This document shows, one piece after another, positions 4,735 to 59,830 of a DNA stretch of 64,000 bases. The notes beneath the pieces were generated by a model that did not search any database, had not been told where the DNA came from, and saw only the letters and a program-made list of their open reading frames with translations. Position 1 is the first letter of the stretch; each line of letters starts with the position of its first letter. A program made the translations under genes and the position numbers. Source of the stretch: Eledone cirrhosa (Eukaryota). The stretch lies in NCBI GenBank assembly GCA_964016885.1, contig OZ024748.1, positions 14,694,001-14,758,000 of the forward strand. The letters are read 5' to 3'.

Positions 4735-5365
4735 TGGTTTCTGATTTAGGCACAAGGACAAACATTTTGGTGGGAGGGGAAAGTCAACTAATTTGACTTT
4801 TGTATGTCACTGGTGATATATTTTATTGACCCCATAAGGATGAAAGGCAAAGCTAAACATGGTGGGCTTTGAAATCAATAATGATAATTGTTTCTACTTT
4901 TTGGCACAAGGCCAGCAATTACCCAGTACATTACTGGTACTTTATTTTATCGACCCCGTAAGGATGAAAGGCAAAGATAACCTCAGCGGGATTTGAACTC
5001 AGATCATAAAGGGACATAACTATGCTAGAAAGCATGGCGTCTGACCCTCTACCGATACTGCCAACTCACCACCCTAATAATAATAATGATAATGGTTTCT
5101 GATTTAGCCACAAGGCCAACAATTTGGAGGGAGAGGAAAGTCAATTAATTCTACCTCAGTACATTACTGGTACTTTATTTTATTAACCCCTACAAATGAA
5201 AGACAAAGTTAACATCAGGGGATTTGAACTCAGTTACAATGATTTCTAATTTAGGCACAAGGCCAACAATTTAGGGGGCGAGGAAGGGTTACCCAGTGCA
5301 TACTGTTACTTTATTTTAGTGACCCCATAAGGATGAAAAGCAAAGCTAATCACAGCAGGATTTGA
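4735..5365 (-). mobile_element. Head-to-tail cluster of four family-1 SINE copies or fragments
   Basis: TTTCT..TTTAGGCACAAGG...GACCCC.TAAGGATGAAAGGCAAAG repeated at ~4735, 4888, 5094 and 5242, separated by (AAT)n or short spacers. Confidence 0.8.
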
Positions 5366-6334: not shown

Positions 6335-6684
6335 ATCATCATTTCATCATCATCATTTCATTTTATGTCCGCTTTTTCCCTGCTTGCAAGGGTGGGACGG
6401 GAACTGATGCTGGCTTGATTTCTACAGCTGGATGCCCTTCCTAACACCAACCTCATTTACAGTGAGTACTGGGTGCTTTTTTGCCGTGGCACCTCCACGA
6501 CCACTTTGCAGTGGAATGATAGGGAACCCAGTCCCTATCATCTCATTTCTACAGCTGAGTAAACTGGAGCAATGTGAAATAAAGTGTCTTGCTCAAGGAA
6601 ACAACACATCACCCGGTCTGAGAATTGAACTCACAACCTTTCGATTGCAAGGCCAATGCTCTAACCACTAAGCCATGTGCCTCC
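6335..6684 (-). mobile_element. tRNA-headed SINE, family 2, ending in the RTE LINE 3' tail
   Basis: Minus strand has A box TGGCTTAGTGGTT, B box GAGTTCAATTC, CORE-like CCTTGAGCAAGACACTT and 3' CCCACCCTTGCAAGCAGGGAAAAAGCGGAC..AAAATGA-(TGA)n, matching the RTE end at 57590-57640. Near-identical to 28045-28390. Confidence 0.85.
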
Positions 6685-6904
6685 ATTAGCCATGTGCCTC
6701 CATTTATATCCATATATATCATATATACACATACATATCATATACATATATATATTATATATGCATACATATCATATACATCTATATATCATATACATAG
6801 ATATATGTATTCATACATATCATATACATATATATACATATCATATATATATATATATTAAAAAAAACAAATATATATATATATATATATATGTATATAC
6901 ATAC

Positions 6905-7229
6905 AACATCATCATCATTTTACGCCCGCTTTTCCCTGTTTGCAAGGGTGGGGCGGGTCCTATTCAGTATCTCTCAACTTGTCAGGGTCCTTCGTCATCT
7001 CCTCCGTGAGCTTCAGCAATCTGAGGTCCGCTCTCACCACCTCCGCCCATGTTTTTCATGGTCTACATCTACTGTGTCTTCCTTCTACTCGGATTTCTTG
7101 GCACTTCTTTACCCAGTGGTCATTCTCCATGCGCATCACATCTCCATACCATCTCAGTCTTCTCTCCTGCACACCACAACTTATCCCTCTTATACCTAGT
7201 TTCTTTCTCAACTCGTCTATGCTTTGAGA

Positions 7230-7231
<2 letters not shown>
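6905..7231 (-). mobile_element. RTE-clade LINE 3' fragment
   Basis: Translation ..[51 protein letters not shown] matches the RTE C-terminus at 57151-57623; (GAT)n tail. Confidence 0.88.
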
Positions 7232-10090: not shown

Positions 10091-11399
10091 CACTATCTGA
10101 CAAACTCCCAAACTATTTCCAATGGCACAATTGCACTCAAAAGGCAAGAGACGAGTTGAGGCTTTGGTAAATTATTGTTGCCCAAGGTGCCAAGAAATGG
10201 GATTGAACTGAGGACCTAATGATTGGGAAGTGAACTCCTTAACTTAAGTCATGTGATGGCAACACATCAAATGTAAGTATATAGTCGATACATGCACCTC
10301 ACACCATTGTCATGCTGTCAAAGGCATAGCTATGTTCGGCAAGACATGGTTCTAGATTGGAGAATCGCCTGCCCAAGATTGTATATGCCATGTGGTGAAC
10401 TCTCTACTAGCCAACTCAACAGAGAAGGCACCGAAGAAAGGATACAAATGTTCCTTAAAGAAATTGCTATAAGCATGTCATTAGTGGGGTTGCCTAGTTG
10501 TAAAGGTGTTGGACTTATGATCATAATGCTGTAGGTTTGATTCCTGGACAGGATTGTATATTGTGGGCTTGAGTAAAATATTTCATTTCACATTGCTCCA
10601 GTATACTCAGCTGAAAATAAGTACTTGCAATAGCTGGGAGTTTAATCTGTCTTGTCCAGGCGTAATCTTGTTCTTTCAGTTGTTTTATGCTATTGGAACC
10701 AGGATAAACACTAGCGCGATGAGCCTTCAGACTCAGGACAGATTTCAACACTCTGATGGACTGGCATCCTGTCCAGTGGAGAGTCATGTATTCTCAGCCA
10801 CTTTACATAATGGAAACCAGCGTAATGACCAGCTTGATGAGCCTTTAGACTTTAGACTTTCTTTTAGATTATCTAAGTTCAAAATCCATCAAGACTCACT
10901 TTGCATTTTTATCCTTTCAAGGTCAATAAAATAACAACCTGTTAATATATTAGGAATATTTAAAACCTTTCATTACCAATATTTCTAATGAAAGTCACTA
11001 CCTATGATTTTCATATAATTTTGAAAATAACCAAGAAGTGTGAGTGATTTATTAAATATAAGAAAAGAGTTAAATATGTCAACTGATTCCTTGTAGAAAA
11101 AAATGGCAGATTCTTAAAACAATATTTACATTCTTACATCAAAATTGATATATGAGAAAATATGTAACAACAACAAATACACTTCTTTTCTATTCTTTTC
11201 TTTTGTTTATGTAGAGAGGAGGTGTGGTGAGTGATGTATGTATGTATCTGTGTGCTTTGTGTATTAAATGACAATTTTTCTATTATTATCTCCCTCACAC
11301 TCTCTACATATACACACACACATATATACATATATATACATGTATATATATATATACATATAATATATAATATCAAAAGATGGTTAAAAGAGTTCCATG

Positions 11400-11470
11400 T
11401 ATTTTATTATGCGCATTTCAAAAACAAATATCATCATGCAATAACATTTGTGTTTTCATCAGATAAAATA
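11400..11470 (-). ncRNA. Type I hammerhead ribozyme motif (mirror copy)
   Basis: Reverse complement of 11605-11675. Confidence 0.82.
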
Positions 11471-11604
11471 GGAAGACATGATATGAAGGTTAAAGAACAC
11501 TTGTGAATAGTGCAGTTTTAAATCAACATATCAACATATCAACATATGTTGATTTAAAACTGCACTATTCACAAGTGTTCTTTAACCTTCATATCATGTC
11601 TTCC

Positions 11605-11675
11605 TATTTTATCTGATGAAAACACAAATGTTATTGCATGATGATATTTGTTTTTGAAATGCGCATAATAAAATA
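11605..11675 (+). ncRNA. Type I hammerhead ribozyme motif
   Basis: TATTTTAT-CTGATGA-[AAACACAAATGTTAT tgcatg ATGATATTTGTTTTT]-GAAA-TGCGCA-TA-ATAAAATA: 8-bp stem I, intact core, ~15-bp stem II, palindromic stem III, predicted cleavage after AUA (11667). Confidence 0.85.
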
Positions 11676-11798
11676 CATGGAACTCTTTTAACCATCTTTT
11701 GATATTATATATTATGTATACTCCAGTCCTACAAATTGTAGAGTGCTTCTTATCTGATATCTGCATTGCTTTATTGTACTACAATAAAACTCACCTCC

Positions 11799-11854
<56 letters not shown>

Positions 11855-11905
11855 CATATATATACATATATATATACACATATATATATATACATATATA
11901 TACAC

Positions 11906-11937
<32 letters not shown>

Positions 11938-12009
11938 GTGTATATATATATATATGTTTATATATATATATGTATATATATATATATGTATATGTATATA
12001 TGTATATAT

Positions 12010-12057
<48 letters not shown>

Positions 12058-13194
12058 GTATATATATATGTATATATATGTATATATATATGTATATATA
12101 TATATGTATATGTATATATATGTATATATAAATATATATGTATATATATATGTATATACTTTCTTCCCAATCTAATCTCAATGATTTTAGCTTTTGTAAA
12201 ATTAGCTTATGTAATATACCAAGATTTCAATAGAGAGAATACATTCACTGCAATAGAGAGAAAAGGAATGAAGGCTATGGTGAGATCTAGATTTAAGAAA
12301 TGTTCTTCTGACATGAATTCTTCAGAGGGTAATCACTTGGCCAATGGTGAGAGATAGTTTCTTACTCATGTTTTTATTTTTGTTGTCTTTCTCTACAAAT
12401 ATTTTTTTTTTCTGTGTTGTTTTCCTCTACAAGTATCTTGAATTACATTCACTGGCAGTTGTGTGAATATTTCATGATGATAAATTGAATTAATATTTAT
12501 GGAACACTTGAGCAATAATTTATTTAGATACACAATGTTTGTCTTTATACTTTCTCACAGCTGATCAACTTTCAATTCTAAAGCTTAGCTTTGCTTTGAT
12601 TTTGTGTATAAATGATTTCTAACATAAAGCACAAGGCCTCACCTTGTAGAAAAGAGAAGAGTATGAATGATAAGCCTGTTTAATACCAAACTGCCTGAAA
12701 CTGACACAAAAACCTTTCCATCTAAATCCTAAGTAAGAATCTTTCTTTTGTTATGCTAGAAACACCAACTTAATAAGGAAAAAGATAGTTATATTACTAA
12801 ATCCCTTACAATTCTTGATCATTTTGAACGTAACATTTACATAAAATTATGATGGAAGGTTTCTGGTTAAATCAACAGTGGCGTTTTCGGGTGGTTTAGT
12901 ACAAAAAAAGGTTAAAAGCACAGCCACCTGTTATTTAACAACAATACAAGCAACTGCCAAAACAACAATCCAGCTGACACAGACTCCTGTTCTATGAAAC
13001 AAAATCTCTCAATTTAAAGGGTACCTATTTCAATGAATATAACATAACATTATGAAAGAACCATATGTTAAGTAACTATCTTAGTATAATGAAAAATGTC
13101 ATAATTTCCGTAAATCCTTCCAAATTCATCATTAATATAATAATTAAAATATGAGGGCCAGCTGAAAATTTCATAGGCAGACAATGAAGGAGTA

Positions 13195-19811: not shown

Positions 19812-21560
19812 TATCATCATCATCAACATCACCATCACCATCATCATCATTATGAACATCACCATCATCATCATGAAATCATTATTATCATCATCACCAT
19901 GAATATCATCATCATCATCAATATCATCATCCTTTCAGCAGCAGCAGATTTAGCATCATCATCAACATCAACATCATATTCACTATAATCAACAACACCT
20001 TCACTACTACCTCAATTATCAACAAAACTACCACCTTCACTACCACTACCATCATGAACAACAACAACATCACCACCACCACCATCCCACCATCATCATC
20101 ACCATCACCACCATCCCACCATCATCATCACCACCACCAACTCTATCATCAACAACAACACTATCACCACCAACACCATCAACAACACTACCACCACCAT
20201 CAACAACACTACCACCATCATCAACAACACTACCACCACCAACATCATCAACAACACTACCACCACCACCATCATCAACAACACTACCATCATCATCAAC
20301 AACACTACCACCATCATCAACAACACTAACACCACCTCCATCATCAACAACACTACCACCACCATCATCAACAACACTACCATCATCATCAACAACACTA
20401 TCACCATCATCAACAACACTACCACCATCATCAACAACACTACCACCACCATCATCATCAACAACACTACCACCATCATCAACAACACTACCACCACCAC
20501 CACCATCAACAACACTACCACCACCATCATCAACAACACTACCACCACCATCATCATCAACAACACTATCACCATCCTCAACAACACTACCACCACCTCC
20601 ATCATCAACAACACTACCACCACCATCATCATCAACAACACTACCACCATCATCAACAACACTACCACCACCACCATCAACAACACTACCTCCACCCCCA
20701 CCATCATCAACAACAACAACACTACTACCACCTCCATCAACAACAACACTACCTCCACCCCCACCATCATCAACAACAACAACACTACCACCACCTCCAT
20801 CAACAACAACACTTCCTCCACCCCACCACCACCACCATCAACAACACTACCACCACCTCCATCAACAACACTACCTCCACCCACCACCACCACCATCAAC
20901 AACACTACCACCACCTCCATCAACAACAACACTTCCTCCACCCCACCACCACCACCATCAACAACACTACCTCCACCCCACCATCATCAACAACAACAAC
21001 ACTACCACCACCTCCATCAACAACAACACTTCCTCCACCCCACCACCACCACCATCAACAACACTACCTCCACCCCACCATCATCAACAACAACAACACT
21101 ACCACCACCTCCATCAACAACAACACTTCCTCCACCCCACCACCACCACCATCAACAACACTACTACCACCTCCATCAACAACAACACTACCTCCACCCC
21201 CACCATCATCAACAACAACAACACTACCACCACCTCCATCAACAACAACACTTCCTCCACCCCACCACCACCACCATCAACAACACTACCACCACCTCCA
21301 TCAACAACAACACTTCCTCCACCCCACCACCACCACCATCAACAACACTACCACCACCACCATCAACAACACTACCTCCACCCCACCATCATCAACAACA
21401 ACAACACTACTACCACCTCCATCAACAACAACACTTCCTCCACCCCACCACCACCACCATCAACAACACTACCACCACCTCCATCAACAACAACACTTCC
21501 TCCACCCCACCACCACCACCATCAACAACACTACCACCACCTCCATCAACATCAACAACA
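19812..21560. repeat. Compound (CAT/CAC/CAA)n low-complexity array with higher-order units
   Basis: Units such as CATCAACAACACTACCACCAC and CAACAACAACACTTCCTCCACCCCACCACC are reiterated. Confidence 0.92.
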
Positions 21561-21890
21561 TGAAGAAATGAATTATAATTTCGATTTTGCCTTTGTTGTC
21601 TCTTTAATTTTTTTCTTATTTCTTATTTTATTTGTGAAATGAAATTCTTCTCATGTTTTTGAATGAAATTTATCCAACATTAGTATCGGATGGTATCAGA
21701 GGGTTGTGTAGAAGTTCTGGAGGAAGTGTGCAGAGATTCTGTAGAGGGTTGGAGACGGTGTGAAAAGGAAGGAAGTTTTGCTGTATATATGAATTATTGA
21801 TTGAGTAAAAGAAAGATATTTTTTCTTGAAGTCAAACCAAATAAATTGTTGGAGCTAAAGTGCACTGATGTATATATATATATATATATG

Positions 21891-22515: not shown

Positions 22516-23623
22516 GCATGCATACATAAATATATATGCATACACATATATATATATATGCTAAGAACAAGCTTCCTTTTTCCTGTCAGGTCAAATGTCA
22601 TCCCTAGCTTGCTAGTCTGTACATTTTTGAAATCTTTGCTCATAAAACTCCATGCATTAGGTAGGAAAGAAAGGAGGAAAGAGAAAAAGAAAGGGGAGAG
22701 AATAAGAAAGATATATATATATAGAGAGAGAGAGGGAGGGAGAGAGATAGTTGTTTGCTATTAAAAATGGTAATGTGGTAATCTTTTGTCAACTTTTGAC
22801 TGCGAAAATGATATGATATATATTATTTAAGTTGTATTTCATCAAAGTGATCTTTTCCTCTTAATTTATTTAGATATTATTAATAAGATTCTGTTTAATA
22901 TTGCTTAAAGAAACATTTTAGGACAAATAATAAGAATTTTCAGTTATAACTTATATATACACAATTTATACATAACATACACACATTCACATAATATATA
23001 CACACACATCTACATAACGTATACTCACACACATCTACATAACATACACACTCACACATCTACATAACGTATACTCACACACATGTACATAACATCTACA
23101 GAAACACATTTGATCTTACTTGAGTTATTGTTTTGAATATTAACAGCTTTTTATTGTATAGTAGAATGGTGATTTTTCACAATAATATTTCAATAAGTTA
23201 TTTAACTTATTAGCTGAGAATTTATTGCATCTATTCAAATAGAATATGAAAACATGACCTAAGACGTTGTAGTTGGTAAGGTCATGTTTTCGATGTGGTT
23301 GTATATTTAGTACTTGAACAAGACTCTTCATTTTATGTTGCTCATGTCCACCAATCATCTGAAAATGATATGAGGGGCAGCAGTAAAGAAATGCCGTTCT
23401 ATCCAGGAGGTTTTATATTGTCAATCACTTAATACCTTATGAAACTGGAATAAGTACTGGCTTAATGATCCTCCAGTTTAAAGACAGACATTGATTAAAT
23501 TTTAATTTCCATAAAAGACTATGTGTATATTGTGTGTTGAGTGTGCAGCACATAAATATATATATATATATATATACGATATTAAATAAATGGAAACTAT
23601 ATTTATAAAACCATATTTATTTC

Positions 23624-23658
<35 letters not shown>

Positions 23659-23765
23659 CTGCTGCACACTCAACACACATAATATATATATGGGGAGCTT
23701 CCAACAGAAATGGTCGCATTCTTTAAGGGTATGTCAATATTTATTTATAAAATTGCTCTATATTA

Positions 23766-23830
23766 TATTTTATCTGATGAAATCACACCATAATTTAACT
23801 TGGTGTCCTTGAAATATGTATAATGAAATA
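23766..23830 (+). ncRNA. Type I hammerhead ribozyme motif (family B)
   Basis: TATTTTAT-CTGATGA-[AATCACACCA taatttaact TGGTGTCCTT]-GAAA-TATGTA-TA-ATGAAATA: 8-bp stem I with one G-U; stem III is one transition from palindromic TACGTA. Confidence 0.75.
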
Positions 23831-24205
23831 AATATGGTTTTATAAATATAGTTTCCATTTGTTAATATATCGTATATATATATATATATACTATAAATTA
23901 TGTCCTTAGAATCATTTAATAAGATATATACTCAATTTCCTCTCCCAATTAGCATAATCAACCATACAAAAAAAAAACAATTAAACCAGGCTATAAGAAT
24001 AAAATGCACCTGTGAAGAAATAATAGATAAATAAACGATAGCCATCTATTCGCGATCAACAGCCATAGAATATTTACCCATCATTTCAATAGCACGTGGA
24101 AATCGATTAAATATACCGTCAACCATACACAATTAGGTATAAAATTAAAGTTAGGAGAAAAAATGCATATACACATACCAGGATTAATATATATATATTT
24201 TTTTT

Positions 24206-25645: not shown

Positions 25646-26619
25646 TGAAATTATAGAGAAAATTACTTTTCTGTCTTTTTTTTATTATTTTTATATTTGT
25701 ATTTTACGAATTAATTTGATTATTGTTAAGTTAATTATTTCGATAGAAATCATTTAATAAAATTCAATTTTCTAATAATCCAAATCTCAGTTATTTAATT
25801 GTAAATAAAATCAATTTCATAATCCAGCTCTCAATTATATAATTTAATAAGTTATTTAAATTTTACAAGTTTAAATTTAAAATCAGTTTATTCAATTAAA
25901 TGTGACATCTCTTTCATTACTGCTATTCCTCTTTTTATAATTGTTGTAGTTGTTGTTGCCGTTGTTATTATTGTAGTTATTTTTGTAGCTGTTGCTCTTG
26001 TTGCTGTTGTTGTTGTTGTTATTATTGCTATTGTTGTTGTTTTACTTACTGTGGCAGTGGTTGTTGTTATAGTTGTAGTGGTTATTGTTGTTGTTTATGT
26101 TGTTACTAAATGTTGATATTATCGGAGGATGATGGCTTGGCAGTCATTTAAGCATTGGACAAAATGGTTTGTTGCATTTGTTCCAGCCCTGAGTTCAAAT
26201 TACGCCAAGGTCAACTTTGCCTTCCATCCTGCTGGGCTTGATAAAATAAAGTAACAATAAAATAATGGAGTCAATATAATTAAATTTACCTGCCTCACAT
26301 ATTGCTGGCCTAAAATAAAAAAATATTGCTGTGGTTGTTGTGGTTAATATTGGTTTTGTTATTTATGCTATGTTATTTGTATTTCATCCATTAAATGTCA
26401 ATGAAAAAAGTACCGGTTTCATACTGGAGTCGATTTGACTTATATATCTCTTTCACATTTCTGGCAATATAACAATATGACCCTCCCAATATATATATAT
26501 ATATACACACATACACATATATATATAGCAAACAAAAATCACTTCGATGAAAACGAAAATAACATCATGACAAATTCAACATAAAAAAATAACAACAATA
26601 ATAATAATAATATTAATAA

Positions 26620-26795
26620 TTGTTTCTACTTTAGGCACAAGGCCAGCAATTACCCAGTGCATTACTGGTACTTTATTTTATCGACCCCGTAAGGATGAAA
26701 GGCAAAGTCAACCTCGGCGGGATTTGAACTCAGATCGTAAAGGGACGGAACTATGCTGGAAAGCATGGCGTCCGACCCTCTACCTATGCTGCCAA
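26620..26795 (-). mobile_element. Family-1 SINE (near-identical to 971-1150)
   Basis: Same sequence as 971-1150; flanked by ATTAATAAT on both sides. Older relatives at ~26130-26325 (+) and ~26830-27050 (-). Confidence 0.85.
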
Positions 26796-27487
26796 TTAAT
26801 AATGATAGAAATAATATAACAACAGCAATAATTTGTTCTAATTTAAGCACAAGGCAAGACTTTTTATGCAGAGGAGGGCGAAGGGGATTACATCAACAGC
26901 ACTATTCACTTTGAGCTTTATTTTATTGAACTATAAATAAAGGATGGAAGGGAAATTTGTCCTCAGCAGGAATTGATCTCAAAACATAAAAAAACCTGCA
27001 ACAAACACCACAACTTTTTTTTTTTTTGTCCAACACTATCTAATGATTCTAATAATTTTAATAACAATTTAAAAAAATAATAATAGAAATAATAATGATA
27101 ATAATAATAATTATTATTTTAGATATGAAAAATTCTGCTGCTGCTGCTGCTATTAAAATATTGCTACTACTACTAATAATAATAATACAGGAAAACTATG
27201 TAGAAATGATTAAAATAATTAAATTGCTTATAATTATTTCTAGAAAATTGTTTTAGTTTGAATTCCAAATGTTTTGAAATATTGAAAAAACAAAAGAAAA
27301 GTAAAAAAAAATACTCATCAATAAAACTAATTGGAAATATACTTGAAAAACTTTCTAAGTTAATTTTGAATTGGAGAGAGAGAGAGAGAGACAGGAGGGA
27401 AGAGATAGAGGAGGGGGAGAGAGAGAGAATGTGGGGGAGGGGCAAGAAAAGGGAAAAGAGATAGTGAAAACGAAAGAAATAGAGAAG

Positions 27488-28044: not shown

Positions 28045-28390
28045 GCACATGGCTTAGCGGTTAGAGCATTGGCCTTGCAATCGAAAGGTTGTGATATCAA
28101 TTCTCAGACCAGGTGATGTGTTATTTCCTTGAGCTAGACACTTTATTTCACATTGCTCCAGTTTACTCAGCTGTAGAAATGAGATGATAGGGACTGGGGT
28201 CCCTATCATTCCACTGCAAAGTGGTCATGGCGGTGCCATGGCAAAAAAGCACCCAGCACTCACTGTAAATCAGGTTGGTGTTAGGAAGGGCATCCAGCTG
28301 TAGAAATCAAGCCAAAAATCAGTTCCCGTCCCACCCTTGCAAGCAGGGAAAAAGCGGACGTAAAAAGAAATGATGATGAATGATGATGAT
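28045..28390 (+). mobile_element. Family-2 SINE (tRNA head, CORE-like middle, RTE tail)
   Basis: Closely matches the reverse complement of 6335-6684; internal hairpin GATAGGGAC..GTCCCTATC. Confidence 0.85.
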
Positions 28391-32174: not shown

Positions 32175-32320
32175 CCCAAGTTGCGCTGGCGGGTAACTGC
32201 AGTTATAAAGGGTACTCAATTTCTTGGTAGATTATAGGCATCTTCATATACAGAAATGATTTTACAGGACTAGAACTGATGATTTCTTATGAATGAAACA
32301 GTTCTAGTCCTGTAAAAGTA
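32175..32320. mobile_element. Fold-back island whose loop is a hammerhead core
   Basis: 19-bp arms TTTTACAGGACTAGAACTG / CAGTTCTAGTCCTGTAAAA. The plus strand reads CTGATGA-TTTCTTATGAAT-GAAA-CAGTTCTAGTCCTG-TA (32276-32314), with the 5' strand of stem I replaced by the inverted arm. Confidence 0.72.
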
Positions 32321-36676: not shown

Positions 36677-36690
36677 GTGTGTATATATAG

Positions 36691-36741
36691 GGCTTCCTGA
36701 TGATTGCTCCCAAATGAAACAGTTCTAGTCATGTAGAAGCC
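36691..36741 (+). ncRNA. Type I hammerhead ribozyme motif
   Basis: GGCTTC-CTGATGA-TTGCTCCCAAAT-GAAA-CAGTTCTAGTCATG-TA-GAAGCC: perfect 6-bp stem I and intact core; stems II and III are weak. Confidence 0.72.
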
Positions 36742-37001
36742 ATTTCTATATTAAATATGTGCTATGTATTAAGTACCTTTCTTACTGTGGTTACCCCCGA
36801 TCGAACCCGGGATACATTGTGGTTTGATGCATTACTGATTCCTCGTTCTTTATACTATATATATATATATCTGGGAGATATATGGTTCAATTCAACCGGC
36901 TGATGGAAACTTCTTTTTCCCTCTTTTAAGGGTCTTCACCATTATTTATAAGTTATGTTATAGCATCTCTATGCTTGAGTACATAATCCTTTATACATAT
37001 A

Positions 37002-39945: not shown

Positions 39946-40881
39946 ATTTAGTAAAGCTAATTTTTAAATGATTGGTGCCTTTCTTAGTCTTTGTTCATTT
40001 TTTCGGAGAGGAACAGAAGGAAGGGCGGAGGTTGTATATCCTTTTGCTGGTTTCAGGCATTAGACTGCGACCATGATGCAGCACAGCTCTACATATCATA
40101 CATAGTTCTTTATCAATCCTTTTTTTCTCAAACTGCTCAATTATGAGACATAAACACTCACATACAAATGTAAAAATACGCACACACACAAATATACACA
40201 CACATACATATATACACATGCACAAACACACACATACACACACTCATACATACATATAACAGGCATATGCAGTTTCTGCTATCAAATTTTATTGACAAGG
40301 AATTGGTTAATCCAAAGTTATAAAAGAATACACAGAAAGGTGCCACAGAATGGGACTGAGCCCAGAACCACGTGGTTTCAAATTAAACTATTTAAGCACA
40401 CAGAAACATACCTTGCTTGTGTGGGGGGGCTTTTTTTTGGGGGGGAGGGTTTCATTAATTATTTTTCTGCTGTTGTTTTTTGTGTGTTTTTTTAATTATT
40501 ACTAACTATACAGTAGACATGTTGGAGTCTGATTTAATTTGTATATAACCTCCCAGAGTGCAAAAGCAGCCATTTTGAAGAAGGACGAAGGGTAGGGGTG
40601 AGCGAGGAGAGGGGGCGAGTGAGAGTAGAGGGTGAAAACAAAACAAAACAAAACGAAAAACAAACACAAAGTAATGTTATAAAGTGTAATATATAGTAGG
40701 TAGATAGGATGGGAGGTAGAAGGATGGAAAGCTAAGTTAGAAAATGGGTAGTGTGATATGTGTGAGGGAGAGAGGTAAAGATGCAGAAGGGCCAAGATAT
40801 TTGTGTGGGAGGAAAAGACAGAATGAAAGTCGTTCTTCAGGAGTTATATCAAAAACAATATTAATAATAGTAATAATAATA

Positions 40882-41070
40882 ATTGTTTCTACTTTAGGCA
40901 CAAGGCCAGAAATTACCTAGTACATTACTGGTACTTTATTTTATCGACCCCGGAAGGATGAAAGGCAAAGTTAACCTCGGCGGGATTTGAACTCAGACTG
41001 TAAAGGGACGTAACTATGCTAGAAAGCATGGTGTCCGACCCTCTACCGATACTGCCAATTCACCGCCCTT
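40882..41070 (-). mobile_element. Full-length family-1 SINE
   Basis: GGGCGGTGAATTGGCAGTATCGGTAGAG head, GAGTTCAAATCCC B box, (ATT)n tail. Confidence 0.87.
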
Positions 41071-44834: not shown

Positions 44835-47230
44835 TAATTGTTTCTACTTTTGGCACAAGGCCAGCAATTTGAAGAGAAGGGGAAAGTTGATTAAATCAAC
44901 CCCAGTGCATTACTGGTACTTTATTTTATCGACCCCACAAGGATGAAAGGCAAAGTTAATAATTATAATAATTGTTTCTACTTTTGGTACAACACTAGCA
45001 ATCACCCCAGTGCATTACTGGTGCTTTATTTTATCAACCCCGTAAGGATGAAAGGAAAAGCTAACCTAGGTGGGATTTGAACTCAGAACATAAAAGGCCA
45101 TAACTCTATGCTGCAAAGCATAGTGTCTGACGCTTTATGGATACTGCTAATTCATATGATTATTATTTTCTTTTTCTTTTTGCAAATCATCACCGCATTA
45201 CCGAGCACAGCTCTGTGTGTCTTGGATATGTGCAGGGTTGTTTTGCATGGCGTTGTTTCTTATGTATTGAGAGTAGTCTTTGTAATATGTTTACTGTGAT
45301 TAGTATTGCTATTTTTTGTATGCTATATATATTTGTAAGTCCTGGAGTTTAGATCATGTATTTGTCTTTCTGTTTTATTATTATTTTGGCAGTATCATTA
45401 GAGTGTTGGACATGATGCTTTGCAGCATAAAGTTATGGCTCTTTACATTCTGAGTTCAAATCCTGCCGAGGTTAGCTTTGCCTTTCATCCTTACATAGTT
45501 GATAAAATAAAGTACCGGTCACACACTGGGGTCGATTTAATCAACTTTCCCCTCCCCAAAAATGTTCTGGCCTTGTGCCTAATGTAGAAAAATTATTATT
45601 GGAATACTAGGTATGATAAAAGCTATGCATAAAAACATAGAAATCATACCAGAGCTCACAACACAAAATACTGTCCAAAAAGCAACTCTGCTAATGTACA
45701 AGACATTATTGATTCAATAACACTGCTCAAATAGAAGAATTTTTAAACACCACACACTCCCTATTCTATAAGCACCTAATAAAATAAAATAATGCAACTC
45801 ACACAAAATATAATTTACAAGATTAATAACCAATAAAATAACACGATTCATATTACACATATTTTACACAATAGAAGAAACGTAAAACAAAACTGATACA
45901 GTGTACTCCAATCCTATAAAAATATAAACACACAATGCTGCACAGAACGCAAGAATATGGTAAAAACTTCCATAAAACTTATGAGGAAAAAAAATTTATA
46001 AATATAATAATTGTTTCTACTTTTGGCACAAGGCCAGCAATTATCTCAGTGTATTACAGGTATTTTATTTTATTGACCCCGTAAGGATAAAAGGCAAAGT
46101 TAACCATGGCAGGATTTGAAAGCAGACTGTAAAGGGCTGTAACTCTATACTGCAAAGCATAGCGTCCAACCCTCTATCGATACTGCCAATCCACCACCCT
46201 ATATTATTTATAATTGTTTCTACGTTAGGCACAAGGCCAGCAATTAGCCAGTGTATTACTGGTACTTTATTTTATCAACCCCGTAAGGATGAAAGGCAAA
46301 GTTAACCTCGGCAGGATTTGAACTCAGAATGGCAAGGGCCGTAACTCTATGCGCCAAAGCATGGCATCCGACACTCTACCAATACTGCCAATCCACCGCC
46401 TATATTATTTATAATACTAATTGTTTCTAATTTTGGTAAAAGGCCAGCCATTACCCCAGTGCATTACTGGTGCTTTATTTTATCGATCCCATAAGGATGA
46501 AAGGCAAAGTTAACCTCGGCAGGATTTGAACTCAGATCATAAAGGGTCATAACTCTATGCTGCAAAGCATTGCGTCTGACCCTCTACTGATACTGCCAAT
46601 CCACTGCCCATAAATAATGTTTCTACTTTAGGCACAAAGCCACCAATTACCCAGTGCATTACTGGTATTTATTTTATCAACTCCATAGTGATGAATGGCA
46701 AAGTTAACCTGGCGGGATTTGAACTCAGAACATAAAGGGCCATAACTCCTATGTTGACATTCTACCGATACTGCCAAACCACCGCCCTCAGGCACAAGGC
46801 CTGCAATTTAAGAGGAGAGTGAAGTTGATAATATCAATCCAGTGCTTTACACGTACTTTATTTTATTGACCCTATAAAGATGAAAGACAAAGTTAATTTC
46901 AGTGGGATTTGATCTCAGAACATAAAGGGCCATAACTCTATGCCGCAAAGCATGTTGTCCGACACTCTACTGATAATTCAAATACACAAACACCTATAAT
47001 AATAATACACAAATATTTATAATGATAATAACAAATGTTTTTAATTTAGGCACAAGGCCTGCAATTTTAGAGGAGAGTGAAGTTGATAATATTAACCCAG
47101 TATCTTTTTACTGTTACTTTATTTTAGTGATCCCGGAAATATGAAATGTGAAGCTGACCTTGGTGGGATTTGAACTCAGTACACAAGTACTATCATAAAG
47201 CATTTTGTTCAATGCTCTAATGTTTCTGTT
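44835..47230 (-). mobile_element. Dense family-1 SINE cluster (about eight minus-strand copies, one plus-strand copy at ~45385-45600)
   Basis: Copies start at ~44836, 44970, 46010, 46213, 46420, 46617, 46790 and 47036, most preceded by ATAAT. Confidence 0.82.
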
Positions 47231-49295: not shown

Positions 49296-49514
49296 ACATC
49301 ACAATTTGGCATGATTAATGGATGTTCTTGTATCTCTATGGGTCCCACTCTCTCTCTCCACCCCCCTCTATCTCTCTCCACCCCTCTCTCTCTCTCTCCC
49401 CAACGTGTCATACCTAATTACACATGATACAGTAACAGACACCTATATTACATTTCAAATAGTAAACAGCAGGATTTCTGAATAAGAAAAAATACAACAT
49501 TTTTTTACAGAAAT

Positions 49515-50306
49515 CCATTCATCATCCACATCATTATCATCATCATCACCATTATCATCATTATCATCATTATCATCATTATCACCATCATCCACATCAC
49601 CATCACCACCATCACCATTATCACCATCACCACCATTACCACCAACATCCACATCATTATCATCATCATCACCATTATCCTCATTATCATCATTATCATC
49701 ATTATCACCATCATCCACATCACCATCACCACCATCACCATTATCACCATTACCACCAACATCCACATCATTATCATCATCATCACCATTATCATCATTA
49801 TCATCATTATCATCATTATCACCATCATCCACATCACCATCACCACCATCACCATTATCACCATCACCACCATTACCACCAACATCCACATCATTATCAT
49901 CATCCTCACCATTATCATCATTATCACCATCATCCACATTACCATCACCACCATCACCATTATCACCATCACCACCATCACCACCATCACCCACATCATT
50001 ATCATCATCACTATCATCGTCATCAACATCATCCTCACTACCACCCAACGCCTCTCTCATTACCATCATCAGCACAACAATCAATACAAATATCTCCAAT
50101 ACAACAACCACCACCAACAACAACACCAACAAAAACAACACCACAAACATCACAACCACCACCACCAAGATCATCAACTCTCCTACCACCACCACCACTG
50201 CTACCGATACCATAACCACCACCACCAACTCTGATACCAACACCCTTATTACCATCATCACCACCACAACCACCACCAACAACAACTGCACTACCAACAC
50301 CATCAC

Positions 50307-50347
<41 letters not shown>

Positions 50348-50360
50348 ACAACACAAACAT
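49515..50360. repeat. (CAT/CAC/TAT)n array with ~110-120-bp higher-order duplication
   Basis: CCACCAACATCCACATCATTATCATCATC blocks repeat three times. Confidence 0.9.
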
Positions 50361-50439
50361 CACTAATATACAACTTCCCCTCTCTTTCTTCCATGATATC
50401 TACACAGCTTTCTTTACAAGCTGAGTCCTAGTTGTTCAG

Positions 50440-56783: not shown

Positions 56784-57150
56784 GCTGTTTTGTCGCTGTG
56801 CTGATAAGCTTTTTGGCATTGATACACTGGTTGGATGCCCTTCCTAACACCAGCGCCACTTTACAGCATGGACTGGGTGCTTTTATTTGTGCCACCAGCA
56901 CTAGAGAGGATGTCTTACTAGACTCAAGGGCCCTCGCTACCCCTCCATTTTACAGCATGGTCATAAAAAAAAAAAAAACTTATTGACACGACTCACACAC
57001 CAATACTCATGCATACAAACCACAACCACACATACCAACACTCATTCATGCATACAATCACACACACCACTCACAAACATATATATATATATACATATAT
57101 TACCGACAGTACTGATACAAAATCAAAATCAAAATCGTCAAAATCACTAT

Positions 57151-57641
57151 TCTCCCTGCGTACGAAAGGCCGGTTGTATGATGCCTGTGTGAGGAGCGTG
57201 ATGCTGCATGGTAGTGAGACATGGGCAGCAACCGCAGAGGATATGCGATGGCTGGAGAGAAATGAGGCAAGCATGCTCCGTTGGATGTGCAGTGTAAATG
57301 TGCGTGAACGACCCAGCATAAATGTGTTGAGAGAGAAACTGTGTCTGAGAGGGATAGAATGTAGTGTACGGGAGAGGAGACTGAGGTGGTATGGACATGT
57401 GATGCGCATGGAGGATGACCGATGGGTGAAGAAGTGCCAGGAAATGCCAGTTGAAGGAAGACGTGGTGGAGGTAGACCACAAAAAACATGGGCGGAGGTG
57501 GTGAGAACAGACCTCAGATCATTGAAGCTCACGGTTGAGATGACGAGGGACCGTGACGAGTGGAGAGATGCTGTGCTGAATAAGACCCGTCCCACCCTTG
57601 CAAGCAGGGAAAAGCGGACGTAAAATGATGATGATGATGAT
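57151..57641 (+). mobile_element. RTE-clade LINE, 5'-truncated, open C-terminal frame to stop 57623
   Basis: SLRTKGRLYDACVRSVMLHGSETW...RRLRWYGHVMRM...GRPQKTW...W motifs, typical of the post-RT region of RTE ORFs; (GAT)n tail. Confidence 0.92.
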
Positions 57642-57890
57642 AAATATATATAGTAATAATAATAAATGTGAAGATACATATATACTGGTAGCTTAGTTCG
57701 GATCTAGCTGTCAAAACGGTAGGAGCTTAGCCTTCGGGGACCCAAATCTTATATATATATATATGTAGGAGGTGAGTTTTATTGTAGTACAATAAAGCAA
57801 TGCAGATATCGGATAAGAAGCACTCTACAGTTTGTAGGACTGGAGTATAAATAATATATAAGATCAAAAGATGGTTAAAAGAGTTACATG

Positions 57891-57961
57891 TATTTTATTA
57901 TGCGCATTTCAAAAACAAATATCATCATGCAATAACATTTGCGTTTTCGTCAGATAAAATA
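57891..57961 (-). ncRNA. Type I hammerhead ribozyme motif (mirror copy)
   Basis: Reverse complement of 58085-58155. Confidence 0.82.
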
Positions 57962-58084
57962 GGGAGACATGATATGAGGGTTAAAACACACTTGTGAATA
58001 GTGCAGTTTTAAATCAACATATGATATGTTGATTTAAAACTGCCCTATTCACAAATGTGTTTTAACCCTCATATCATGTCTCCC

Positions 58085-58155
58085 TATTTTATCTGACGAA
58101 AACGCAAATGTTATTGCATGATGATATTTGTTTTTGAAATGCGCATAATAAAATA
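58085..58155 (+). ncRNA. Type I hammerhead ribozyme motif
   Basis: TATTTTAT-CTGACGA-[AAACGCAAATGTTAT..ATGATATTTGTTTTT]-GAAA-TGCGCA-TA-ATAAAATA; the core differs from copy 1 only at the free N7 position. Confidence 0.85.
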
Positions 58156-58249
58156 CATGGAACTCTTTTAACCATCTTTTGATCTTATATATATATATAT
58201 ATATATCCATATGTGGTTGATGGCTAAGAGAAAAGAGTTATCAATTTCA

Positions 58250-59469: not shown

Positions 59470-59830
59470 TGTTGGATGCTTAAAGCGTCCATATGCGGTA
59501 GGCCGTATGAGCACTCGATGCTCTCATAGTATGATATCACATAAAAAAAGAGAATCATTGTTGCGACGAATGGAATTTATTGGACATATTACAATCCTTT
59601 CTCTGATGATCGAACCTGACTCTGAAAATTGCAAGGTCCTCAGATACGTCTTGATTCTATGAAGCAGATTTTCCTCGTAGAATCAAGACGTATCTGAAGA
59701 CCTTGCGATTTTCAGAGTCAGATTCGATCATCAAATCGATCGTCCCTCGAGCTGGTCGCCAGAGAAACGATTGTAATATGTCTAATAAATTCCATTCGTC
59801 GCAACACTGATTCTCTTTTTTTCTGCGGAT
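59470..59830. mobile_element. Fold-back hammerhead element D in (TA)n
   Basis: Arms ~59543-59662 / 59675-59822; the left arm lacks ~26 nt of the stem II insert; left-only tail 59470-59542. Confidence 0.82.
59687..59782 (+). ncRNA. Type I hammerhead ribozyme motif with 63-nt stem II region
   Basis: GACGTAT-CTGAAGA-[CCTTGCGA...TCGCCAGA]-GAAA-CGATTG-TA-ATATGTC: 7-bp stem I (one G-U); stem III is one transition from CGATCG. Confidence 0.72.

Follow-up and report, generated by a model that had tools for sequence, protein, structure and literature searches.

Penelope-like elements (PLEs) have been described with inverted pLTRs meeting in palindromic junctions, with a tail on one side only and with pairs of hammerhead ribozymes on opposite strands (PMC3846280, PMC8557442, PMC4209133); such hammerhead pairs, lying 100-700 bp apart, are in print (PMC4209133, bioRxiv 10.64898/2026.07.22.740005). 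The origin of the inverted repeats and of the one-sided tail is listed as unresolved in PMC8557442, and self-priming was proposed in PMC3846280. For PAc/Poseidon of Anolis, the purified PLE protein acts in vitro on both strands, cutting and extending them; two internal start sites bound the tail and are used without strand difference, a dimer is predicted, and the hammerhead is dispensable (PMC11167929).

The window analyzed here, a stretch of 64,000 nucleotides from the 3.0 Gb genome of Eledone cirrhosa, contains two palindromes of this kind, at the positions reported in an earlier note based on the sequence (copy 1, 11361-11802; copy 2, 57764-58191). Each hairpin is a head-to-head pLTR pair of a Hydra-clade Penelope-like retrotransposon set in (TA)n; its identity as a PLE, which the earlier note had missed, is practically certain. 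Our main reading, to which we assign a probability of roughly 70%, is that one hairpin corresponds to one PLE insertion into (TA)n, whose two arms likely arose as cDNAs primed independently of each other and joined head to head. Positions within the pLTR are numbered from A1 (+1), the first A of ATATGTTG, at window position 11544 in the long arm of copy 1. In each copy the long arm ends at +259 and the short arm at about +169 to +173. The features are as follows.

11361..11531, minus strand: tail-less pLTR arm of copy 1; A1 at 11531, outer end at the proposed start site A, about +171 to +173
11400..11470, minus strand: minimal type I hammerhead of copy 1, opposite strand; core 11456-11462, predicted cut between 11408 and 11407
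11532..11547: junction of copy 1; two extra 8-nt units, read from the sequence and the junction table as the template's first bases copied again
11544..11802, plus strand: tailed pLTR arm of copy 1; A1 at 11544, outer end at the proposed start site B, +259
11605..11675, plus strand: minimal type I hammerhead of copy 1; CUGAUGA 11613-11619, GAAA 11656-11659, palindromic helix III, predicted cut after 11667
11717..11802, plus strand: tail of copy 1, about 86-90 nt, spanning the interval between both proposed cDNA start sites
11803..12160, and about 11310-11360 on the left side: (TA)n-type target microsatellite flanking copy 1
57764..58022, minus strand: tailed pLTR arm of copy 2; hammerhead core 57947-57953
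58023..58023, plus strand: junction base of copy 2; one extra base, whose origin in this copy is ambiguous: the cap, or the parent base before A1 as template
58024..58191, plus strand: tail-less pLTR arm of copy 2; hammerhead core 58093-58099, predicted cut after 58147; then (TA)n

The final 4 nt of the copy 1 junction (ATAT, 11544-11547) are common to the junction and the long arm. The two copies had been said to share a fold point: the fold base is the same, but the junction as originally written is found in neither, since copy 1 holds the two additional 8-nt units and copy 2 the base at 58023. Likewise, the short arms, supposed to stop at the same place, end about 4 nt apart, both within a TA-like stretch. 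The loop of copy 1 is a stutter and each arm holds a hammerhead motif, as had been noticed. Seven substitutions (at least six had been claimed) separate the copies and are present in both arms; the arms are identical at 159/159 sites in copy 1 and differ at 3/159 in copy 2. The description of these variants as private did not survive comparison with 59 other loci: six of the seven allele differences are seen there in both arms, and one copy 2 allele alone is without a match. The shared variants are mostly subfamily alleles.

The repeat-finder output for the window is dominated by (TA)n. Among the other repeats, there are many 3'-end fragments of an RT-bearing LINE ending in (GAT)n, presumably RTE-like judging by motif (57071-57640 and, for example, 6365-6680, 6900-7230 and 28045-28360), one of them about 120 nt from copy 2. 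An abundant SINE-like repeat of about 190 nt is found at 961-1150, 4880-5064, 26616-26796, 40875-41063 and 46004-47180, with a tandem array near 46-47 kb. Long low-complexity tracts of (CAC/CAA/CAT)n type (19880-21640, 49460-50420) are a source of spurious open frames.

The tail-end motif has 13,564 matches in the genome. Longer copies extend upstream through A1 into the 3' UTR and ORF, and downstream past +259 into the ORF's start; in full-length copies the tail continues into the 5' UTR and then the ORF. The pLTR flanks the ORF as a partial tandem, with a repeat period of 3,940 nt (L123), and the unit lies upstream of the ORF in L095, L101, L105 and L106. Three natural copies (L097, L113, L118) hold frames of 595-677 aa with YRDDG and, downstream, an IY..FG.T..R motif, whose region aligned to the Pfam GIY-YIG domain of a homologue (P0033). 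The ORF also contains RW[R/I] at the RWK position, DKT, a linker of CxCX5C type, and CxxC as well as CxH, placed around E and N. Searched by sequence against Pfam and PDB, the family's own frames gave no significant match, so that the assignment rests on motifs and homologues; by these, the ORF would encode an RT followed by a C-terminal GIY-YIG-type domain, and appears to carry the Hydra-clade features of PMC8557442. Two of its closest named homologues are from Argonauta. Judged by its motifs, the element is an addition to the Hydra clade, and its overall architecture is already known.

Between RT and endonuclease, L086 and L118 have an asparagine-rich stretch, longer than in most homologues, which recalls the N-rich inserts of rotifer Penelopes as described in part of PMC3846280. 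A broken ORF of a second Hydra-like PLE (L087:5182-7178, minus strand) lies about 2 kb from a copy of this pLTR-hairpin family.

The junction pattern was matched 2,159 times genome-wide and never in the reversed control, and is therefore not a product of chance. That the palindromes are fold-back artefacts of assembly or library preparation is unlikely, and we consider the probability negligible: 2,159 junctions fall at one base, the long/short asymmetry of the arms is fixed, the arms carry independent mutations and the flanks are unique. Moreover, raw reads from three other individuals hold related opposite-strand joints, at the same fold base and leading from A1 to short tailed arms, as well as loose TA ends at both sites. 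The perfect fold-to-fold joint, from A1 to A1, is not among the joints listed, a point on the side of an artefact.

The relationship between arms was analyzed on 61 loci with both arms of at least 160 nt, consisting of 42 of 48 consecutive junction-pattern loci and 19 best-match loci, the window copies included. Arms of one locus differ on average at 2.5 sites, against 10.2 between loci, and minor alleles are concordant between arms in 293/336 cases (87%), the shuffled mean being 15%. On a tree, the long/short label changes 47 times, compared with 39 in shuffles; the arms are therefore not grouped by side, a grouping that the earlier note had named as a refutation. Strict clustering by locus was not borne out: no more than 29 of the 122 arms have their partner as strictly nearest, 41 have it in a tie and 52 are closer to some other arm, so that arms group by subfamily. 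One and the same haplotype bears several differing junctions. With no clustering by side, the high concordance and different junctions on identical haplotypes, every insertion involves new synthesis of both arms on the same kind of template.

Homogenization of the arms by conversion, also suggested in the earlier note, plays a minor part, given that singletons occur in one arm 74 times and in both arms 14 times, and that their rate per arm (0.53%) is near that of the unpaired tail (0.62%). The same figures bear on the view that palindromic master copies are transcribed and copied whole, with fold point and arm ends inherited and conversion keeping the arms similar. Near-identical hairpins in thousands, and the 14 both-arm singletons, would agree with it. 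We hold it to be very improbable, since junctions vary within one haplotype, side-specific clustering is absent, one-arm singletons prevail at a rate near that of the tail, and insertions of every length are bounded by the same A/B ends.

The fold point is a fixed 5' end that each arm uses separately. Among 14,542 motif copies, the parental bases upstream are retained in only 6,363, and about 56% begin at A1. A sample of tail-anchored insertions was obtained from the first 100 tail-end matches on one contig (C1), of which seven were dropped (four internal tails, one second end of the same locus, one duplicate, one complex case); the resulting table of 93 consecutive insertions, spanning the first 45 Mb of one chromosome only, was read by hand. 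In this sample 27/93 tailed and 31/79 tail-less arms start at A1, amounting to about 4 arm starts per base at A1 against 0.04 just upstream, and in 10 pairs the tail-less arm alone starts there.

The base preceding A1, which is C in the parent, is G in 2,602 copies and A or T in 2,855; G thus makes up 48% of non-C bases, against about 20% expected from composition. By eye, the first 30 G-preceded sites comprise about 11 untemplated bases, 9 in microhomology with the partner, 6 ambiguous cases, 3 stutters and 1 probable point mutation. The TTCATA context at A1 presumably bears a weak likeness to the initiator consensus. On these sequence features, A1 is probably the capped transcription start of the template, although we propose it as a putative one. 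A physical template end at A1 would explain the loop of copy 1, by the cDNA end slipping 8 nt back and re-copying. An extra G is the mark of capped L1 templates in the excerpt of PMC11702581, and an internal promoter has been described in the pLTR of Penelope (PMC2377424).

An inverted partner, as a 5'-truncated copy, is present in 82 of the 93 insertions, and 68 of them pair a tailed and a tail-less arm. The outer end of the partner is at site A in 68 cases and at site B in 3; in 11 it is cut or unseen, and the remaining 11 insertions have no partner. The 68 A+B pairs and 3 B+B pairs follow a one-of-each rule, with p = 2e-9 against free choice over the 93 insertions. The 48 junction-anchored loci comprise 43 with a long and a short arm, 1 with two short arms, 2 with a stub arm and 2 unclassed. 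The exceptions to the rule are the 3 B+B pairs and 1 A+A pair (L041).

Of the 79 pairs other than B+B, 26 have equal 5' ends; in the others it is the tail-less arm (46) or the tailed arm (7) that extends further 5'. This comparison is biased in two ways: with site A about 85 nt 5' of site B, the tail-less arm has a head start, and a tail-less arm of very small length would escape detection (46 vs 18, were the 11 partnerless cases all assigned the opposite way). The arms have no overlap at all in 14/79 pairs; in L054 the short arm holds extra upstream bases, and in L044 and L084 the two arms derive from different subfamilies. When A1 starts are excluded, the median length is 235 nt for tailed and 821 nt for tail-less arms, and 22/93 tailed arms start between +150 and +239, around site A.

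These figures bear on the proposal that one cDNA, or an antisense RNA (as in the part of PMC3846280 cited), folds at the CATATG palindrome and copies itself into the second arm, which was also the earlier note's first suggestion. Such self-priming is already proposed in print; it would yield identical arms and the commonest junction (the ATAT overlap, 22/61 loci), the parent has a 6-bp palindrome at A1, and equal 5' ends are found in 26/79 pairs. A fold-back copy, however, cannot contain sequence absent from its template, and arms are often non-overlapping or each hold sequence missing in the other, so that two separate syntheses are needed. Self-priming cannot produce the 14/79 pairs without overlap, the tail-less arms exceeding their supposed template (46/79), the upstream extras of the short arm of L054 or the mixed-subfamily arms, and A1 is used also where a symmetric partner is absent. 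Fold-back is refuted as a general route and is, in our estimate, quite unlikely as an explanation of the family; fully symmetric copies, both window hairpins among them, are individually compatible with it. Two independent cDNAs per insertion are highly probable.

The hammerhead core is intact in 114/122 arms, and stems I and II are predicted. The fold energies of the hammerhead and tail regions are not exceptional with respect to shuffles (z = -1.0 to -1.5). An Rfam scan of the window showed no hammerhead family among the 150 of 235 matches listed, nearly all of which are miRNA-type, on microsatellites or hairpins, and every one below the gathering score. A hot spot of arm starts at the predicted ribozyme cut was considered and rejected. 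Raw counts were 221, against 110 and 114 at the adjacent bases; 18/30 inspected sites proved to be substitutions or slips (no loci of the third set were inspected), and the corrected count of about 88, against 72 at the next base, leaves no excess of arm starts by which the ribozyme cut could define the templates. Templates starting at A1 run through the hammerhead uncut. The absence of a cut-site pile-up and these uncut templates agree with the dispensable hammerhead of PMC11167929.

The earlier note had envisaged a kinetic switch between cleavage and double-stranded RNA. Whichever way a head-to-head pair is read through, the antisense arm is transcribed first; according to the predicted fold, the A1-started transcript retains its hammerhead stems, whereas the read-through transcript is one long duplex in which the ribozyme is buried; the switch is therefore unsupported. 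Formation of a putative long double-stranded RNA by read-through is plausible. A non-LTR retrozyme was also rejected, as the arrangement is head-to-head rather than head-to-tail and the ends are A1, site A and site B, not ribozyme cuts.

A few other hammerhead-like sequences were observed. At L250/L251 (C1:244900710-244900743) a palindrome of the family is folded exactly at the predicted cut, with a similar pair at C8:59937958; such cases are rare and produce no overall excess. In the window, a segment flanked by TA at 23600-23880 contains a minimal-hammerhead-like motif (core 23774); an inverted copy of 35 nt lies at 23600-23634, and the whole probably represents a pLTR from another PLE family. 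A second hammerhead-like family is found at 32260-32317 and 36690-36830, and at L003:99-239; the same head-to-head habit is suggested by the short hairpin that it forms at 32260 and, in L003, by a palindrome of 141 nt. An old imperfect palindrome of 74% identity, with CTGANGA motifs on both strands, lies at 59550-59815.

For two independently primed cDNAs, the following course may be envisaged. The GIY-YIG domain would cut both (TA)n strands. Reverse transcription would then start at two fixed sites inside the RNA, each primed by one of the 3' ends at the break, and a dimer of the protein, bound to a single RNA, would probably carry this out. The short template would be an RNA, likely capped, that the promoter within the pLTR itself produces from A1 onwards. 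The polymerase at site B would trail and often stop early; trailing on the same RNA would result in short tailed arms, many of them ending near site A. Where both cDNAs reach the template end, their last bases would be ATAT, in many cases with a C added or the 8-mer copied again. This self-complementary end, or microhomology, would allow them to anneal, which can give the commonest junction (22/61), repair filling in the rest. The hammerhead would be a passenger, carried uncut by the templates. Against this course, PMC11167929 gives no strand difference in start-site use.

We lean towards a single RNA per insertion, although overlapping cDNAs on one RNA would require strand displacement, and the arms of mixed subfamily are better accounted for by two RNAs, or by ectopic conversion at a later time. 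Alternatively, two RNA-protein particles, each with its own RNA, might extend the two ends, dimer geometry or target asymmetry fixing the start site. This arrangement would do without strand displacement and accommodate L044 and L084, and one dominant source per germ cell would account for the 87% allele concordance; it is unlikely, given that free choice of site is rejected (68 vs 3) and that tailed arms are far shorter (median 235 vs 821 nt, A1 starts excluded), many ending near site A. The full scheme, of programmed twin priming by a dimer on one RNA, with two fixed sites and both (TA)n ends, together with a short capped pLTR RNA acting as a self-renewing non-coding sub-element, is a tentative proposal, to which we give slightly less than even odds. 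If true, programmed twin priming would explain, by one and the same step, both the inverted pLTR and the tail on one side, and each insertion would be a divergent promoter pair able to seed further ones.

Compared with known systems, the element resembles the Hydra-clade PLEs (PMC8557442), as far as the excerpt describes them, sharing the C-terminal GIY-YIG-type domain, the RWK-like and DKT motifs, the CxCX5C linker, CxxC and CxH, a pLTR hammerhead and the (TA)n target. It differs from them in unit length (generally under 3 kb, vs 3.94 kb here), in the presence of RWI in place of RWK in some copies, and in the tail, which is 30-40 bp in PLEs and about 86-90 nt here, with over 13,000 tail ends in this genome. 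The Penelope insertions of Adineta vaga and Drosophila virilis (PMC3846280, PMC2377424) are alike in their head-to-head inverted pLTRs, palindromic junction, tail at one end and AT-rich targets; those papers, in the parts cited, derive self-priming from few copies, whereas here copy statistics lead to two cDNAs and a fixed, likely capped 5' end. In the excerpted Anolis report (PMC11167929) the two start sites are not linked to inverted pairs, no one-site-per-end rule is given, and the sites show no homology to the target, while in this family both are TA-like.

Minimal PLE hammerheads and non-LTR retrozymes (PMC4209133, bioRxiv 10.64898/2026.07.22.740005) share the type I fold with a tiny palindromic helix III; the retrozymes, as excerpted, are head-to-tail tandems bounded by hammerheads, and neither property is found here. 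L1 twin priming and 5' inversions (PMC11702581) are similar in that both target ends prime cDNA, joining is by microhomology and an extra G marks capped 5' ends. According to the same excerpt, the second L1 priming site is variable and upstream, and the segments barely overlap; here the sites are fixed, 85-90 nt apart, and the same region is copied. No paper stating twin priming for PLEs was found in a literature search that left older reviews and supplements aside.

The thousands of young insertions in this genome have ends that discriminate between models and argue against fold-back, and the family ties the two-site, two-strand result obtained in vitro to a genomic structure, with sharp predictions. 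In an RT with telomerase as its sister, telomerase-like re-copying of a terminal 8-mer is notable. Neither the element nor the presence of hammerheads on both strands is new; what is added to the systems described so far is evidence at the population level, which speaks against self-priming and in favour of programmed twin priming, the template being a short pLTR transcript that is likely capped.
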